A stretch of DNA of 64,000 nt. It comes from Callorhinchus milii. Taxonomy: Eukaryota. This document shows positions 1,048 through 63,369 of this stretch, piece by piece (the stretch's first letter is position 1; each line of letters begins with the position of its first letter). The notes under the pieces were generated by a model. That model did not search any database. It was not told the origin of the DNA and was given only the letters and a program-made list of their open reading frames with translations. Made by a program: the position numbers and the translations under genes. The stretch lies in NCBI RefSeq assembly GCF_018977255.1, contig NW_024704744.1, forward strand, positions 69,750,001 through 69,814,000. The letters run 5' to 3'.

Positions 1048-1315
1048 CGGAAGGTATCCATTTCTGACACTTTTCACAGTAATAAGACATTTCCTCTGGC
1101 CAGGACACTTCTGCTTCGTCACCAAGCTCACTGTTCAACGAATCGCCGCTCTGATCATGAGACAAGTCCACCGAGGCCTGGTCCTCAGACTCCACGATCA
1201 GCAGCGTTTCCCCTTCAACCTCTCCTTCTTCCAGGCCCTCAGAAGCCATCATCCTTGGACTTTCTTCCACCAATGGGTGACTGCCCAAGCCTACTACCTC
1301 CCCATTATCTTCCAT
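1048..1315 (-). CDS. KAT14: KAT14/CSRP2BP (ATAC complex acetyltransferase subunit), first coding exon; gene continues beyond window start
   Basis: ATG at 1315. Translation contains SEGLEEGEVEGETLLIVESEDQASVDLSHDQSGDSLNS...YYCEKCQKWIP, matching the recalled vertebrate CSRP2BP N-terminus. Donor G|GTATGT at 1047. Confidence 0.93.
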
Positions 1316-1452
1316 CAAGACAACTCTCTTTGTACTCGAGAGTCAATTCTAACTGTTAGATTTTCCCTATTCCTAATTAACTCTTTCCACCGTTCTGGAG
1401 GAAAAAATATTAATCTATTAAACACTCAAAACAACAAAGAGTTTAAAAAGAA

Positions 1453-1614
1453 TCAAAAATCAGATTTATGCTTCTCAGATTTCTGGATGCTCTCAGATGC
1501 CACTCGATCTGCTTCCAGCTGGTTTGTCAGAATAATTTGTTCTTCCAACAGTCGAAGATTCTTTTTTTTATGCTCTTGTCGTTCAAGATCTCGGAATACT
1601 CCTTCTCGCAATTT
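1453..1614 (-). CDS. PET117: PET117 cytochrome c oxidase assembly factor, coding exon 2
   Basis: Acceptor TTTTCTTTCTGTAG at 1615. KLREGVFRDLERQEHKKKNLRLLEEQIILTNQLEADR...SDF*, similar to human RLRDGVIRDIERQIRKKENIRLLGEQIILTEQLEAER. Phase 0 matches exon 1. Confidence 0.93.
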   Translation of the reverse strand, partial: KLREGVFRDLERQEHKKKNLRLLEEQIILTNQLEADRVASESIQKSEKHKSDF

Positions 1615-1684
1615 CTACAGAAAGAAAATACAATTGGAGGGTTAACGTAATTTTTTAAGTTATAGATGTTCCATAAAAATAGCT

Positions 1685-1825
1685 CCCATGATGGCTCAGT
1701 GACATTATCACATGAACCACTGAACCATTAAGGTCAGAAAGGCTCTACGTTCAGTTCCCAGTCTGTGCCGATTCAGTGATTCTCAGCTGCTGGGGATGTA
1801 GTGGGGCTGCAACTGACTTGACTCT
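1685..1825 (+). mobile_element. Old tRNA-headed SINE-like dispersed repeat (family not named)
   Basis: GATGGCTCAGTG...GTTCAGTTCCCAGTCTGTGC head. Diverged opposite-strand relatives appear near 15160-15360, 23020-23220, 30060-30290, 31870-32110 and 56030-56300. Confidence 0.4.
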
Positions 1826-1872
1826 GTTAATCAAGGAAATTAAATTAAACAGGGTTCCAACTCCTCCTCATC

Positions 1873-2200
1873 GGAGTCCTGTAGCTCAGTGGTTAGAGCA
1901 CTCGCTTTGCAAGTGAGAGACCCGAGTTCAATTCCAGGCAGGTCAGGGCGAAACCTTGGGCAAGTTTCCTTACTCCACACAGAGCCTAATAATAATCCCT
2001 CCAAAACCAAAAACAATAATAAATTGGTCATTTTCAATCTACGACTGTTTGTGGGACATTGCTGTGCGCAATTGGCTGCCGCGTTCGCCCACAAATATAC
2101 AGTCAATTCACTTTACAGTGTGTTCTGTGAAGCGCTTTGGGACGTCCTCCCGACGTGAAAAGCGCTATATCAAATGCAAGGATTATTATTATTATTATTA
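1873..2200 (+). mobile_element. tRNA-Ala-derived Deu-domain SINE, full length
   Basis: Pol III A box (TAGCTCAGTGG) and B box (GTTCAATTCC), TGC anticodon-like loop, Deu-like core TTGTGGGACATTGCTGTGCGCAATTGGCTGCCGCGTT, L2-like tail and (TTA)n. Confidence 0.9.
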
Positions 2201-2224
2201 TCATGACGTGTGAGGGCAAAGTTA

Positions 2225-4159
2225 GGACCATATCAAATCCTACCGCTCCGCCTTCGTCTCTGCTAAATCGTCGTTCTACTCCAAGACAATCTTGGAGGCT
2301 AAGGACAACCCCAAGCTCCTCTTCTCCATCACAAACCGACTCCTCTGCCCACCCTCTCCCGCCTCATCCATCCTCACCTCAAATACCAACTGGGAGACGA
2401 TGCTGAACTTCCTCGAATCCAAAGTCGAGGGAGTCCGCTCAGCTGCCTCTGCCACTGCATCTGCTATACCCTCCCCATCTCCTCCTCCCACCCCTGCCCC
2501 TACCCATCCTTCCCTCCACACCTTTGAACCTATCTCCCCCTCCTCTCTCATCACCACTAAAACCTGCATGTAACCGACCACCTGTTCCCTCGACCCCATC
2601 CCCACCCTTTGCCTTACCTCCCAGCTCCACCTCCTTGTCCTTCTACTCACTGACATCATAAATCTCTCCCCATCTCCGGTATTGTTCCCACCCCATTGAA
2701 AACTGCTGTCATCACTTCTACCTTTAAAAAAACCCTCCCTGGACCCATTTCGAACCTCCCTTTCCTCTCCAAGGTCCTGAAACGAGTTGTTGCTTCCCAG
2801 TTTCGCTCCTTCCTCTCCCATCACTCCCTTCACGGGCCCCTCCAATCCGGTTTCCGTGCCACCCTCAGCACAGAAACAGCTCTGTCAAAGTGACAAATTA
2901 TATTCTGTCCATCTGCGACCAAGCCATCCTCTGCCTCGTCCTCCTTGACCTCTCTGCTGCCTTCGAGACCGTTGAACACTCTATCCTCATCCACCGCCTC
3001 TCCTCTCACCTCAACCTTCACAGCTCTGTCCTTAGTTTTCAGATCGTACCTCTCACACCGCCTCCACTTCATTCCCCACAGTTTCTCCTCTAGCCCCCGC
3101 AACATCTCATACAGCATTCCTCAGGGCTTTGTCCTTGGTCACCTTTACTTCAATATCTATATGCTCCCTCTTGGTGACATCATCTGCAGACATGGGGTCA
3201 ACTTCCACATGTATGCGGATGACACCCAACTCTACCTCTCTGTCTCCACCCTCGACTCCAGGACCACTGCTGTCCCGACAGAATGTCTGTCTGACATCAA
3301 GTCTTGGATGAGAGCTAATTTTCTTCAGTTGAACGTCAATAAGACCGAAGCTCTCCTGATGAGCTCCATTGGCGCCTTCTCACCTCAGGTGCTGACAGAA
3401 TCACCATCCGTGGTTGCACTCTCCACCTCACTGAGCCAGTCCGGAACTTTGGCGTCTTGTTTGACCCTCAACTATCCTTTCTACACATCTGCGTCATGAC
3501 CAATTCTGCCTTCCCCCACCTCCGCAACATCGCCCAGCTTCGCAACTGTCTCACACTGCAGGCTGCCGAAACCCTCATACATGCTTCCTCATACACTGAG
3601 GCTCGACTATGCAAACTCATTACTTGTCAACCTCCCCAACTCCTCCCTCCACAGGCTGCAGATCATCCAGAACTCTGCAGCCGCGTCCTCTCCCACACTA
3701 GGCTCCGTGACCCTATCACCCCCATCCTCGCCCGACTCCATTGGCACAGAGGATACAGTTCAAAATCCTGGTCCTCACCTTGAAAGCTCTCCATAGTCTT
3801 GCTCCCCCCTACCTCTACGACCTTCTAACCCCCCTACCATCCCGCTCGCTCCCTCCACTCAGTGGTCCCTGGCCTGTTTCACGTCCCCCTGCCTCGCTCG
3901 CCCCACTATTGGTGGGTGGGCCTTCTGCCACTCTGCCTCCACGCTCTGGAACGCCATCCTGCAGTCCCTCCACCTCGACTCCTCCTTTGCCTCCTTCAAG
4001 ACCCATCTCAAGACCCTCCTCTTGGACCGTGCTTTTGATCTCCCCCACCCGCCCTCCACCCTTCCCAACCCTGACCCCCAGCTCAGGTACAAAACTCTGT
4101 CTGTCCAGCGCCTTGGGACATCCTTCGAAAGGCGCTATACAAATATAATTTTGTTGTTG
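2225..4159 (+). mobile_element. L2-clade LINE, 5'-truncated and degenerate ORF2 (reverse transcriptase)
   Basis: Fragments PISNLPFLSKV, QSGFR..STETAL, LVLLDLSAAF, FHMYADDTQLY, RLDYANSLL with frameshifts. The 3' tail GGCGCTATACAAAT ends in (TTG)n. Confidence 0.9.
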
Positions 4160-4684
4160 GGCAAAATTTTTGGGGTCCCCTCTCAGAGTCAAACAATCAA
4201 CCATTGCTCGGTCAAGCCACTGAGAGCAGAAATATCAAGCAAGTTATAATCAACAACAACTTGTATTTGTACAGAACCCTTCATGCATAGTAGTGTGTCG
4301 GAGCCCTTAACAATGGCGGAGCCTTGACACCATTGTCAAGCGCTTCGAATCACTACCCTGCGTGAAGGGCGCTGTATAAATTAAACGCAAGTTGTTATTG
4401 GTTATAATCATCCCGCTCACCTAGTTCCTGAAAGTATTAGGGGCAGGTTGGCAAGAACCAAGGCTTGATGACCCCCGAGCGTGTTTTGGGGTATTCATGG
4501 GGTCCTAACGAGCTAAAACCCCAATAGCTTGCCATTGCTATTGCCGACTGGCAAGCTTTCCCGCTGCTTGTACCACCCTACCCTGCCCATTTGGGCTGCG
4601 GCGTGCAGGGCTGGCAGGAGCTGAGCGGGGTGACTGCCTGCCCCCAGTCACTGGTCTGCCCTTCCAGGTCCTGCCGATGAGCCA

Positions 4685-6938
4685 GGTTGGGCTGTGCTGT
4701 GTGTGCTGGGCTGTGTGTGCTGGGCTGGGCTGTGTGTGCTGGGCTGTGTGGGCTGTGCTGGGCTGCGTGTGCTGGGCTGCGTGTGCTGGGCTGTGTGTGC
4801 TGGGCTGGGCTGTGTGTGCTGGGCTGGGTGGGCTGGGCTGTGTGTGCTGGGCTGTGCTGGGCTGTGTGTGCTGGGCTGGGCTGTGTGTGCTGGGCTGGGC
4901 TGTGTGGGCTGGGCTGTGTGTGCTGGGCTGGGCTGTGTGTGCTGGGCTGGGCTGGGCTGTGTGGGCTGTGCTGGGCTGTGTGGGCTGGGCTGTGTGTGCT
5001 GGGCTGTGCTGGGCTGTGTGTGCTGGGCTGTGCTGGGCTGGGCTGTGTGTGCTGGGCTGGGCTGTGTGTGCTGTGCTGGGCTGTGTGTGCTGGGCTGGGC
5101 TGTGTGTGCTGTGCTGGGCTGTGTGTGCTGGGCTGGGCTGTGTGTGCTGGGCTGGGCTGTGTGTGCTGGGCTGTGTGTCCTGGGCTGTGTGTGCTGGGCT
5201 GGGCTGTGCTGGGCTGTGTGTGCTGTGCTGGGCTGTGTGTGCTGGGCTGTGTGTGCTGTGCTGGGCTGTGTGGGCTGTGTGTGCTGTGCTGGGCTGTGTG
5301 GGCTGTGTGTGCTGGGCTGTGTGTGCTGTGCTGGGCTGTGTGTGCTGGGCTGTGTGTGCTGGGCTGGGCTGTGTGTGCTGGGCTGTGTGTGCTGTGCTGG
5401 GCTGTGTGTGCTGGGCTGTGTGTGCTGGGCTGGGCTGTGTGTGCTGGGCTGTGTGTGCTGGGCTGTGTGTGCTGGGCTGTGTGTGCTGGGCTGTGTGTGC
5501 TGTGTGTGCTGTGCTGGGCTGTGTGTGCTGGGCTGTGTGTGCTGGGCTGTGTGTGCTGGGCTGTGTGTGCTGGGCTGGGCTGTGTGTGCTGGGCTGTGTG
5601 TGCTGTGCTGGGCTGTGTGTGCTGGGCTGTGTGTGCTGTGCTGGGCTGTGTGTGCTGTGTGTGCTGTGCTGTGTGTGCTGGGCTGTGTGGGCTGGGCTGT
5701 GTGGGCTGTGTGTGCTGGGCTGTGCTGGGCTGTGTGTGCTGGGCTGTGTGGGCTGTGTGTGCTGGGCTGTGTGGGCTGTGCTGGGCTGTCTGTGCTGGGC
5801 TGTGTGTGCTGTGCTGGGCTGTGTGTGCTGTGCTGGGCTGTGTGTGCTGTGCTGGGCTGTGTGTGCTGGGCTGGGCTGTGCTGGGCTGTGTGTGCTGGGC
5901 TGTGTGTGCTGTGCTGGGCTGTGTGTGCTGGGCTGTGTGTGCTGTGCTGGGCTGTGTGTGCTGTGTGTGCTGTGCTGTGTGTGCTGGGCTGTGTGGGCTG
6001 GGCTGTGTGGGCTGTGTGTGCTGTGTGTGCTGGGCTGTGTGTGCTGGGCTGTGTGTGCTGTGCTGGGCTGTGTGGGCTGTGCTGGGCTGTGTGTGCTGGG
6101 CTGTGTGTGCTGTGCTGGGCTGTGTGTGCTGTGTGTGCTGGGCTGGGCTGTGTGTGCTGTGCTGGGCTGTGTGTGCTGTGTGTGCTGGGCTGGGCTGTGT
6201 GTGCTGGGCTGGGCTGTGTGTGCTGTGTGTGCTGTGCTGGGCTGTGTGTGCTGGGCTGTGTGTGCTGTGCTGGGCTGTGTGTGCTGGGCTGGGCTGTGTG
6301 TGCTGGGCTGTGTGTGCTGTGCTGGGCTGTGTGTGCTGTGCTGGGCTGGGCTGTGTGTGCTGGGCTGTGTGTGCTGGGCTGTGTGTGCTGGGCTGGGCTG
6401 TGTGTGCTGGGCTGGGTGTGCTGTGCTGGGCTGTGTGTGCTGGGCTGGGTGGGCTGTGTGTGCTGTGTGTGCTGGGCTGTGTGTGCTGTGCTGGGCTGTG
6501 TGTGCTGGGCTGGGTGGGCTGTGTGTGCTGTGTGTGCTGGGCTGTGTGTGCTGTGCTGGGCTGTGTGTGCTGGGCTGGGTGGGCTGTGTGTGCTGTGTGT
6601 GCTGGGCTGGGCTGTGTGTGCTGGGCTGGGTGGGCTGTGTGTGCTGTGTGTGCTGGGCTGTGTGGGCTGTGCTGGGCTGTGTGTGCTGTGCTGGGCTGTG
6701 TGGGCTGGGCTGTGTGTGCTGTGTGTGCTGGGCTGGGCTGTGTGTGCTGTGCTGGGCTGTGTGTGCTGGGCTGTGTGGGCTGGGCTGTGTGGGCTGTGTG
6801 TGCTGGGCTGTGTGTGCTGTGTGTGCTGGGCTGTGTGTGCTGGGCTGTGTGTGCTGGGCTGGGCTGTGTGTGCTGTGCTGGGCTGTGTGTGCTGTGTGTG
6901 CTGGGCTGTGTGTGCTGGGCTGGGCTGTGTGGGCTGTC
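4685..6938. repeat. 2.25-kb minisatellite of GCTGG / GCTGT / GCTGTGTGT units in PET117 intron 1
   Basis: Read directly. The plus strand shows no A, which explains the five spurious ~800-aa ORFs in the track. Confidence 0.97.
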
Positions 6939-6939
6939 A

Positions 6940-7680
6940 GCAGCAGTGGCCCGCGGGCCCGCCTGGCTCGGGCACCGGGCCAGAGGCCGCCCACAGAGGG
7001 CTGGCTGGATTCCCACAGCCAGGCATGTCACCTTGGAGCCGGTTCAGCACCAAGGAGACCCCGCCGACCTCCCTCCCCCCCCCACACCCCCGGGCCTCGC
7101 TGACGGGGACACGGGGCGGGGCGGCTGCAGTGACCCCCGGCGGCACATTGACGGATTGGGGCCTAGACCTGCCCCCGCCGGGGATTCCCTGCCACGGTGT
7201 CCGGTGATGGTGGGGTGAGGGGAGAGACTGCAGCCGCGGGTCAGAGCAGCTGCCTCCCTCCCTCCCTCCCTCCCTCCCACCCTCCCTCACCCCACTCGCA
7301 GGCCGCGGGCCTCAGCGCACCGAGCGGCGGCTCCGTGTTCCCGAGGCCGCGACTGGAGGTCGCCGTGCGGCTCACTTTGAGCCGAGGCCTCGGTCGGTGC
7401 CTCCCCCCACCCCACCCCACCCCCGCGGGGAGCCCCAGCACCAACCTCCCTGTCCAGCTGCTGCCTCAGGTGGACCCCGGCCACCGTGCCCGCTGTCACC
7501 GCCACAGAGACGCCGAGGACCACCTTAGAGACGGCGGACATGATGCGAGCCCTGCCCGGTCACCATGGAGACCGGCGGGGGCAGGGCAACCAGGCACCGC
7601 CGCCCAGCGCAGAGACATCGATGCCAGACCCCCACCGCTCCACCGCCGAGCGCAGAGACACTGATGTAGAACTGCACCTC
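6940..7680. promoter_or_regulatory. CpG-island-like promoter / first-exon region of PET117-KAT14
   Basis: Very GC- and CpG-rich around the PET117 start. GC boxes GGGGCGGGGC near 7113. Confidence 0.7.
7446..7541 (-). CDS. PET117: PET117 coding exon 1
   Basis: MSAVSKVVLGVSVAVTAGTVAGVHLRQQLDRE versus human MSRSSKVVLGLSVLLTAATVAGVHVKQQWDQQ. 96 nt, donor GAG|GTTGGT at 7445. Confidence 0.93.
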
Positions 7681-21951: not shown

Positions 21952-22403
<452 letters not shown>

Positions 22404-61718: not shown

Positions 61719-62796
61719 GTAATACAGGAATTTTAGGACTTTTGCAGTGTTAAGCATGGTTTCTCGGTGAACACTAATCTTTTATTTTAATATGTCAGCA
61801 TTGGAATTTGGGTTTAACAATGCGTTTAAATTTGTTAATAGCCAGCTTGCATGGTAGGTGATCTGTGTATGTTCATTTTGTAGGGTTAGCATAGGACAGC
61901 CTTGTAATGAACTCTCAAGCATCACCTTTGATGGTTATATTCCAACTTACTAGCTTGTAGCTTTCGATCTATGCCATTACAGCTTCCTCCAGGGGTGGGT
62001 GAAAGCGGGAGGGAGGAGTAGCGGAGAATCTGCTTGGAATTGAGATGACAGAATTATGTCAATCCTCTGTGGTGGGCAGTGAAGTCTGGTTCCTGAGGCA
62101 GCAGGTCTGTAGACTTGAGGGGACTTGTGGATGAGCACAGCCAACCTGATTCATCGGTAGGAAGGGCAGACCAGTCATTTTTAAGGGGCATAAACTCCAA
62201 GCTAAACCCTGTTAACATTACAGATCAAAGCTGTAATGGATAGATTGGTCCTACCTGGATAAGTGGTAGATGTTTTCTGGACAGTATTCTCAATGGTAAG
62301 CTATGTAATTTATAGCTAATTAAACTTCTGCAGTACTCTGACCTGCACTCTTGGGTCCCCAAGTCTCTACTCGTGTCGACCTGTACCTAATGCTCTCTGT
62401 AAGTAGGTTAGCAGGGTGGTTCCTACCAGGCGAAAATGTACATTCTATTCGAGATGCCGGGTTATTTCTGTGTGTTGGTGCACTGTATATCTAGCATGAT
62501 GATGGGTTTTCACACTTGGTTTCTCATGAGGTTATGATCCTCATTATCTATTGATCTCAAACCTTAGCGATTTTACCATCTTGACTGAAGTGTCTATGAT
62601 AGAAGATCAATGTTAAAGAATCAAGAACTTGCCAAAGGTAGGTAATGTAGCTTATAGTTTGATTTACAAGCCCCATAATACTGTACAGCATTGATTTGAT
62701 ACATAATTTTGGAATTTGATTTCAAACAATCTTTATTTTAAAAAAGTGCATCAATCAATGTTATCTATAATCTGCAATATTGTTTTTTTATTGCAG

Positions 62797-62956
62797 GATC
62801 TTTTATACAGGAGAGCCCGAGCTCTGGTTGACTATGAAAATGCAAACAAAGCTCTTGACAAGGCTCGGATGAAGAGTAAAGATGTGAAGCTGGCAGAAAC
62901 ACAGCAGCAACTGTCCTGCCAGAAGTTTGAAAAACTTTCAGCTTCTGCAAAACAAG
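62797..62956 (+). CDS. SNX5: SNX5 exon 11
   Basis: DLLYRRARALVDYENANKALDKARMKSKDVKLAE...FEKLSASAKQ; 160 nt. Confidence 0.95.
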
Positions 62957-63369
62957 GTACGAGTTCCTCATTCCACATCTCCAGCAGAGAAATCAAAGCT
63001 GCTATTCGGGAGTCGAGGTAGTTGGTTGCCTTAGTTCCTTCCTTCCTTGTTTTGATAAATAATCCTTACATTTGGTATAGGGTTAATTAAGTAGGGGATT
63101 TTTATCATGTTAAAAGTTATTGCAATAACAAGTAGCTTGTGAAATGTCATGGAACTATCAAGTAGTAATGTTACTAGCACAACAGTGGAGCTGAGGTGCC
63201 CACCAATAGCATTTAATAGCCTTTAACATCGAACTTGAGGGAATTCCTGTGAAATGCAGCAACTGTGTAATTGTCTGATTTCCTCCCCCCCATCGACATT
63301 GTTTGATTTAGCTTTACATGTTTATTTTTTTCTTTTATTTCCTCCCCTGTTGCTCCTCCCTCAATTCAG

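Follow-up and report, generated by a model that had tools for sequence, protein, structure and literature searches.

PET117 and KAT14 on one spliced transcript in Callorhinchus milii, and a methionine shortage in PET117 that suggests leaky scanning

How does a ribosome reach the second of two coding sequences that follow one another on what appears to be a single messenger RNA (mRNA)? The question is raised by a 64,000-nucleotide (nt) stretch of DNA from Callorhinchus milii (the window, to whose positions all coordinates refer). On its minus strand, from 7541 to 1048, the gene for PET117 is followed by the gene for KAT14 (also named CSRP2BP), and one exon contains both the end of the first coding sequence and the start of the second. 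PET117 is a mitochondrial complex IV assembly factor encoded by two exons (PMC3334569, PMC5429353) and a complex IV disease gene (PMC5429353); a shared transcript is unmentioned in the available parts of both papers. The conclusions reached here are that PET117 and KAT14 are very probably carried on a shared mRNA, and that the main route to KAT14 is probably leaky scanning, with selection against AUG.

The coordinates that a previous, sequence-only reading had given for PET117 and KAT14 were all found to be correct when the minus strand was read again. The PET117 ATG is at 7541, there is a GT donor after 7446 and an AG acceptor before 1614, and the open reading frame (ORF) of 85 amino acids (aa) ends in a TGA at 1455-1453. 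Both exons are above the Pfam PF15786 cut-off of 27, at 37.7 and 31.1 bits, and the joined protein is identical to the NCBI PET117 of Callorhinchus milii, so that Pfam score and orthology both place it in the PET117 family. A search of the genome found a single PET117 locus. The downstream ORF, which in the shared exon is in a different frame from PET117, is the start of a 795-aa KAT14 record (100% to P0121) and has 60-83% identity to vertebrate orthologues. All ten coding exons of KAT14 were mapped, the nine beyond the shared exon lying to the left of the window (L002, L003), and the C-terminus is a GNAT domain (Pfam, E 5e-12). N-terminal orthology and a GNAT domain in the same gene identify it as KAT14/CSRP2BP, the ATAC subunit. 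A retroposed origin of KAT14 is ruled out by its ten coding exons.

The exon is contained in 15 runs, none of them recorded as RNA. The GT-AG splice joints in their contigs led us to treat five of these (X1, X2, X3, X4 and X7) as RNA. KAT14 exons 3-6 are joined to the complete shared exon by GT-AG splices within a single contig in four runs out of four, from two studies. Similarly, the exon 1 donor at 7446 is joined directly to the beginning of exon 2 at 1614, with no other target, in four out of four. In all three runs examined at both ends (X2, X7 and X4), one contig, of 2475, 2630 and 1170 nt respectively, extends from PET117 exon 1 to KAT14 exon 6. The contig has the same size and depth at both ends, implying a single assembled path with the PET117 leader at one end and KAT14 exon 6 at the other. 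Runs X1 and X3, each examined at one end, agree with this spliced path. Two conserved ORFs on one spliced path are one mark of a eukaryotic bicistronic mRNA. The point to be set against this is that a contig is not a molecule. Two transcripts that overlap would yield the same assembly, and isoforms of low abundance are lost from it, so it is the path that is demonstrated, and not its share of the transcripts.

Four alleles were seen in the shared exon among the runs, and none of them makes an ATG. The allele at 1397 (three of four runs) weakens a candidate 3' splice site at 1395. That at 1415 (one of four runs) turns the spacer hexamer at 1419-1414 into AATAAA, and the contig is unbroken there. 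These two spacer alleles could give minor isoforms, either PET117-only or with a truncated PET117. The sequence-only reading had reported neither an AATAAA signal nor an obvious intron between the ORFs; the exon indeed contains no AATAAA, though the 1415 allele creates one in the spacer, and the polypyrimidine-AG acceptor at 1395 had been overlooked. On such features one could build a different account, in which KAT14 or PET117 is supplied mostly by isoforms of its own (by an internal promoter, splicing at 1395 or polyadenylation in the spacer) and the two genes overlap in the shared exon without forming a working bicistron. The polypyrimidine-AG, the poly(A)-like hexamer with its AATAAA allele in one run, and the distinct PET117 and KAT14 accessions held by databases are all in keeping with it. 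We nevertheless consider it very improbable, given that exon 1 joins only to 1614, that contigs run unbroken through the spacer in all four runs including the one with AATAAA, that three of the four carry the allele weakening the acceptor, and that both ORFs are found together on 92% of human long reads (PMC13303939).

The coordinates of the features are collected below.

Table 1. Features of the PET117-KAT14 locus, in order of transcription.
Feature	Position	Strand	Remarks
5' leader, transcribed	7542..7602	-	at least 61 nt, 75% G+C; contigs of runs X7 and X2 end at 7602 and 7597
Upstream ORF (uORF), predicted, 13 codons	7525..7566	-	AUG at 7566 with T at -3 and G at +4 (weak context)
PET117 coding exon 1, 96 nt, 32 codons	7446..7541	-	hydrophobic N-terminal part; Pfam PF15786 E 2e-9; spliced to 1614 in 4/4 runs
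Intron 1, 5831 nt, GT-AG	1615..7445	-	contains tandem array 4688-6937 and pieces resembling long and short interspersed elements (LINE/SINE-like; repeat classes by inspection)
Shared exon 2, 567 nt	1048..1614	-	PET117 end, spacer and KAT14 start; whole within one contig joined to KAT14 exon 3 in 4/4 runs, two studies
PET117 coding part of exon 2, 53 codons + TGA	1453..1614	-	Pfam PF15786 E 3e-7; 100% identity to P0001
Intercistronic spacer, 137 nt	1316..1452	-	A/U-rich, without ATG; variant poly(A) hexamer 1419-1414 and candidate acceptor ending at 1395, both polymorphic
KAT14/CSRP2BP first coding part, 89 codons + 1 nt	1048..1315	-	ATG at 1315 with T at -3 and G at +4; GT donor after 1048

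The same arrangement exists in human. The sequence-only reading had stated that human PET117 shares a transcript with CSRP2BP/KAT14, and this is in print: Guo et al. 2026 (PMC13303939, Dataset EV1) count the pair as one of 14 human bicistrons of high confidence. According to the same source, ENST00000688188/NM_001392073 carries both ORFs, both are present on 179 of 195 long reads, and each is positive by PhyloCSF and Ribo-seq. The locus in C. milii is the chimaera orthologue of this published human bicistronic gene. The names PET117 and KAT14 do not occur in the main text of PMC13303939; in its available parts, no mechanism is given for this pair, and the evolutionary dataset, which covers seven pairs, has no entry for PET117, KAT14 or Callorhinchus. 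In mouse, the Kat14 start codon is likewise in exon 2 (PMC13594194). A search of the literature, with subscription papers outside it, found nothing on mechanism or deep conservation of the pair, and neither name is present in the text of PMC7619398, the supplement of PMC8789081, or the text and 12 supplements of PMC4528330.

Linkage of the two genes is seen widely in jawed vertebrates. They have consecutive locus tags in Conger (conger eel), Hymenochirus and Ascaphus (two frogs) and Hirundo (swallow), and the longest contig is equally long for PET117 and KAT14 in eight species, from rays to frogs. PET117 records with Logan contigs only are on contigs of 2.6-3.5 kilobases (kb) in 14 cases out of 15, the size expected for both ORFs, which is circumstantial; matching PET117 with KAT14 records by the size of their Logan contigs gave no identical pair. 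A scan of metagenomes for PET117 DNA gave 537 pattern matches, none confirmed. Taken with the human data, the linkage in jawed vertebrates implies that the arrangement is older than the split between cartilaginous and bony vertebrates, as the earlier reading had proposed. That divergence is about 450 million years old.

Some public records combine the two genes in other ways. Five of 120 KAT14 matches (four teleosts, one lizard) are gene models fused to PET117. The PET117-KAT14 fusion models in public databases (P0144, P0170, P0211, P0227, P0230 and P0248, from fishes and a lizard) have unlike junctions, and are probably mistakes of annotation brought about by the shared exon. A genuine fusion protein was considered and rejected, the fused records differing at the junction and the ORFs being in different frames in C. 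milii. In P0207 (turtle) and P0233 (whitefish) the KAT14 N-terminus is joined to amino-acid transporter and elongation-factor-type domains respectively, and these are likely to be assembly or annotation chimeras.

We turn to the route by which KAT14 is translated. The sequence-only reading had claimed that the 392 nt between the two start codons contain no AUG in any frame where several would be expected by chance, and both statements hold: there are 0 ATG, against 5.6-8.2 expected from shuffles (P 0.0002-0.0006; four shuffle types, 20,000 trials). The following 1108 coding nt of KAT14 hold 15 ATG; against this, the lack of any in the first part has P 0.011. Depletion of AUG upstream of the second ORF is a hallmark of leaky scanning, and it is present here in the C. 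milii DNA and, as in-frame methionine (Met), in vertebrates, the latter more weakly when no tree is used. Several observations reduce the force of the DNA result. TCA (expected 5-7) and CCC are likewise missing from the 392 nt, being the only two other absent trinucleotides; genomic windows of 392 nt have no ATG in 2-4% of cases (51/1260, 52/1260, 26/986, 16/985); PET117 exon 1 is G+C-rich, which in itself lowers ATG; and the spacer on its own has a weak deficit, with P 0.03-0.24.

It is mainly the PET117 coding sequence that carries the signal, which is fixed there by the protein. Because the protein has no internal Met, Cys or Trp and no [YHND][VADEG] pair, no ATG is possible in its coding sequence in any frame with any codons. 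The codon-shuffled control that had been suggested earlier was carried out with three types of recoding, 20,000 of each, and never produced an ATG; since no synonymous recoding of C. milii PET117 can yield an ATG, it is uninformative for this coding sequence. When the order of the residues was shuffled instead, an AUG-incapable protein resulted in 0.8% of cases.

Met was counted at protein level in the PET117 core, defined as residues 2-69. Three of 120 vertebrate PET117 matches (alternative C-termini or duplicate isoform) and one 245-aa cluster member were dropped, as were 56 of 120 KAT14 matches outside 755-800 aa. The non-vertebrate-like set consists of 53 full-length, vertebrate-distant sequences chosen by eye from 150 representatives, four others being used as amniotes. 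Met makes up 11 of 10,064 core residues in 148 jawed vertebrates, compared to 57 of 3,602 in the 53 non-vertebrate-like homologues. Cores unable to spell ATG number 14 of 14 in chondrichthyans (all 14 without Met, Cys, Trp or a [YHND][VADEG] pair), 10 of 134 in other vertebrates and 2 of 53 in non-vertebrates. The Met count is not biased by how high a sequence ranks among the matches, the top 58 having 5 and the lower 59 having 4.

To take account of kinship, the minimum number of label changes was counted on trees. Those that involve Met number 8, where 58.5 are expected from KAT14 in the same clades and 24.3 from non-vertebrate PET117. Within L/I/V columns, changes with Met stand to those among other hydrophobic residues as 3:157 in vertebrate PET117, compared to 24:181 (P 0.0002) and 109:287 in the comparison sets. 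It is likely that a constraint of translation is written into the PET117 protein sequence.

The case has weaknesses, which we list together. Ten of the 148 vertebrate cores do contain Met (138 are free of it), while 18 of the 53 non-vertebrate-like cores are also Met-free. In bony fish and amniotes the PET117 proteins retain AUG-capable residue pairs, as judged at protein level. Without a tree, Met is found in 2 of 15 variable L/I/V columns, compared to 8 of 18 in non-vertebrate PET117 (P 0.07) and 39 of 85 in the other comparison set (P 0.02). Other residues are low too: Cys, Pro, Asp and Ser compared to KAT14, and Phe, Tyr, Ser and Glu compared to non-vertebrates. Trees from 68 columns are poorly resolved, and the change counts are blind to gain versus loss. 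Finally, the 53 non-vertebrate-like sequences, of which three have species names (starfish, termite and snail), serve as a comparison whatever their transcript structure may be. The earlier claim that selection removes AUGs thus gains support from the in-frame Met shortage on trees, and less from the tree-free comparison (P 0.02-0.07).

On a rival view the bicistronic mRNA is real, and its lack of ATG comes from an exon 1 rich in G+C and from a protein that is conserved and poor in Met, with no selection for scanning. The absence of ATG from the C. milii coding sequence does follow wholly from the amino-acid sequence, and the Met-free non-vertebrate-like cores, the depletion of other residues and the tree-free P of 0.07 against non-vertebrate PET117 point the same way. 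What makes us regard this as unlikely is that L, I and V interchange freely in vertebrate PET117 (157 changes) and with Met almost never (3), that so few residue orders are AUG-incapable, and that Mets are frequent just past the start codon of KAT14 orthologues, many of which have extra ones among their first 28 residues. In C. milii, there is an out-of-frame AUG in strong context at 1305 (ORF 1305-1294, three codons), 10 nt past the KAT14 start, and there are in-frame KAT14 AUGs at 1252 and 1249. To judge by their position, the latter two could catch ribosomes that miss 1315.

The AUG-free path does not extend unchanged to amniotes, where 23 of 31 PET117s carry an internal Met. These Mets are almost all close to the end, 24 of 25 being within 16 residues of the stop and mostly 6-16 residues before it.

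The start-codon contexts give a less simple picture. In C. milii the first ORF has A at -3, which is fairly good, and T at +4, and the second T at -3 and G at +4, so that the -3 contexts are the reverse of the textbook pattern and speak somewhat against leaky scanning. The earlier reading had correctly noted the A at -3 and U at +4 of the PET117 start. The U is no sign of tuning, since PET117 has Ser as its second residue in 147 of 148 vertebrates and in 51 of the 53 non-vertebrate-like homologues. Residue 2 of KAT14 is D, E or A (hence G at +4) in 61 of 64 orthologues.

The A at -3 also bears on a second way of using one mRNA, namely that KAT14 is made mainly by termination and reinitiation, with 40S subunits retained past the PET117 stop and scanning the 137-nt spacer. 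Most ribosomes should initiate at a PET117 start of this kind, PET117 has just 85 codons, and the spacer is ATG-free and little structured. However, the shortage of Met 20-80 codons upstream of the PET117 stop would be left unexplained, and absence of ATG from the spacer alone is a weak signal. Avoidance of AUG deep within PET117 matters only if scanning subunits cross it, and this argues for leaky scanning or for a bypass by the uORF at 7566, and not for reinitiation after PET117. Human ribosome data also go against it. The ribosome signal is 119.6 for KAT14 and 77.3 for PET117 in one dataset (PMC13303939), and in a second there are 168 reads on 782 codons of KAT14 and 11 on 82 codons of PET117 (PMC4383229), though the PET117 figure in the latter rests on those 11 reads. 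If elongation rates are alike, a KAT14 signal above that of PET117 in two datasets means that reinitiation after PET117 cannot be the sole source, and as the main route we consider it distinctly unlikely.

The uORF itself was overlooked by the earlier reading. Contigs of X2 and X7 reach 7597 and 7602, so its AUG at 7566 is within the transcribed leader; contigs cover it in two of four runs. It is out of frame with PET117, spans the PET117 start and stops within PET117 codons 5-6, 378 nt before the KAT14 AUG. It might even be the main route to KAT14 in C. milii: its 13 codons would be translated, with the stop past the PET117 AUG, and reinitiation would occur 378 nt further on. As the first AUG in the transcript, opening a short ORF that overlaps the PET117 start, it is well placed for this, and the route would equally need an AUG-free PET117 coding sequence. 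Its weak context (T at -3) and its position 31-36 nt from the contig ends, which leaves it out of transcripts starting further down, make this role very doubtful. The annotated PET117 of the whale shark (P0009) begins at an upstream Met that lengthens it by 27 aa in frame, so that upstream AUGs may occur in other cartilaginous-fish PET117 leaders.

From these observations we infer a scanning route, an accessory role for the uORF, and selection as the cause of the Met shortage. Ribosomes that initiate at 7541 would make the 85-aa complex IV assembly factor, and those that miss this start would scan through the AUG-free PET117 coding sequence and spacer to the KAT14 start. In C. milii the uORF may add a second bypass, with ribosomes starting there, stopping just past the PET117 AUG and resuming scanning. 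Scanning subunits would thereby cross the PET117 coding sequence, and this would select against Met codons in PET117. Very short ORFs, such as short uORFs, can allow reinitiation, and the amniote Mets in the last few codons are probably tolerated as very short ORFs of this type.

The earlier reading had gone on to suggest a coupling of complex IV assembly to ATAC. Nothing beyond co-expression was found in favour of this, and human KAT14 translation is not arsenite-resistant in the available data: the translation efficiency of CSRP2BP under arsenite is 0.19-fold, Z 0.04 (PMC4383229). A stress-switched uORF system of the ATF4 or SLC35A4 type was likewise rejected, human KAT14 translation having fallen with the bulk under arsenite in the same study.

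A joint reading may be offered tentatively, as a possibility for which the balance is somewhat unfavourable. The need for scanning may have shaped PET117 for some 450 million years, with jawed vertebrates keeping the core Met-free and cartilaginous fishes having AUG-incapable proteins. Variants of PET117 that create an AUG would then cut the dose of KAT14, and hence of ATAC, in cis, and in chimaeras the overlapping uORF would set the ratio of the two proteins.

The degree of surprise is limited by the arrangement having already been published for human. What is new is the transcript evidence from Callorhinchus, the age of the linkage across jawed vertebrates and the shortage of Met in the PET117 core, which add a measurable footprint of translation on an amino-acid sequence, and a testable mechanism for PET117-KAT14. 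In practice, RNA knock-down of either gene would be expected to deplete both proteins, PET117 variants could change KAT14 output, and in several genomes the two ORFs have already been wrongly merged by gene prediction.

Of the surrounding DNA, much of PET117 intron 1 is a tandem array at 4688-6937 (2.25 kb), G+C-rich and almost CpG-free, with units of 5, 14, 19 and 33 nt and open frames of more than 800 codons on both strands. On the plus strand there is a C2H2 zinc-finger exon at 21952-22284 and a helical exon at 62707-63018, which has no Pfam match. From the human gene order, these are likely to be OVOL2 and SNX5 respectively. In mouse, OVOL2 is head-to-head with Kat14 (PMC13594194).

The closest comparison is with the human locus, which has orthologous genes in the same order and strand, a 96-nt first exon, a shared second exon and ten KAT14 coding exons. 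The KAT14 exons match in phase, with lengths of 259/119/122/182/417 in human and 268/122/122/182/417 in C. milii. The spacer is 303 nt in human (by the coordinates of PMC13303939) compared to 137 nt, and many amniote PET117s differ from that of C. milii in having a Met near the C-terminus. Other vertebrate bicistrons with a small upstream protein are STREMI-SLC35A4, MIURF-MIEF1, PYURF-PIGY, ASDURF-ASNSD1, MOCS2 and SNURF-SNRPN (PMC13303939). They resemble PET117-KAT14 in that a larger ORF is preceded by a small, unrelated one that is conserved and in many cases mitochondrial, and in the joining of older independent genes in one transcript. The retroposition model proposed there for SLC35A4 is unfit for the many-intron KAT14. 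Human KAT14 also differs from SLC35A4, PIGY and ASNSD1 in that its ribosome signal exceeds that of the upstream ORF, and arsenite resistance of the SLC35A4 type is not seen for it in PMC4383229. In green algae, bicistrons show AUG depletion before the second ORF, and leaky scanning was shown by means of Kozak mutants (Duenas et al. 2025, PMC11892635). The algal mechanism is mutation-tested where that of PET117-KAT14 is inferred, and the PET117 start, with its A at -3, is not clearly weak, unlike the first ORFs of the algal leaky-scanning bicistrons. Drosophila dicistrons reportedly lack in-frame AUG in cistron 1, going by the title of Wall et al. 2005. With both the algal and the Drosophila systems PET117-KAT14 shares a short first ORF and the depletion of AUG ahead of the second.

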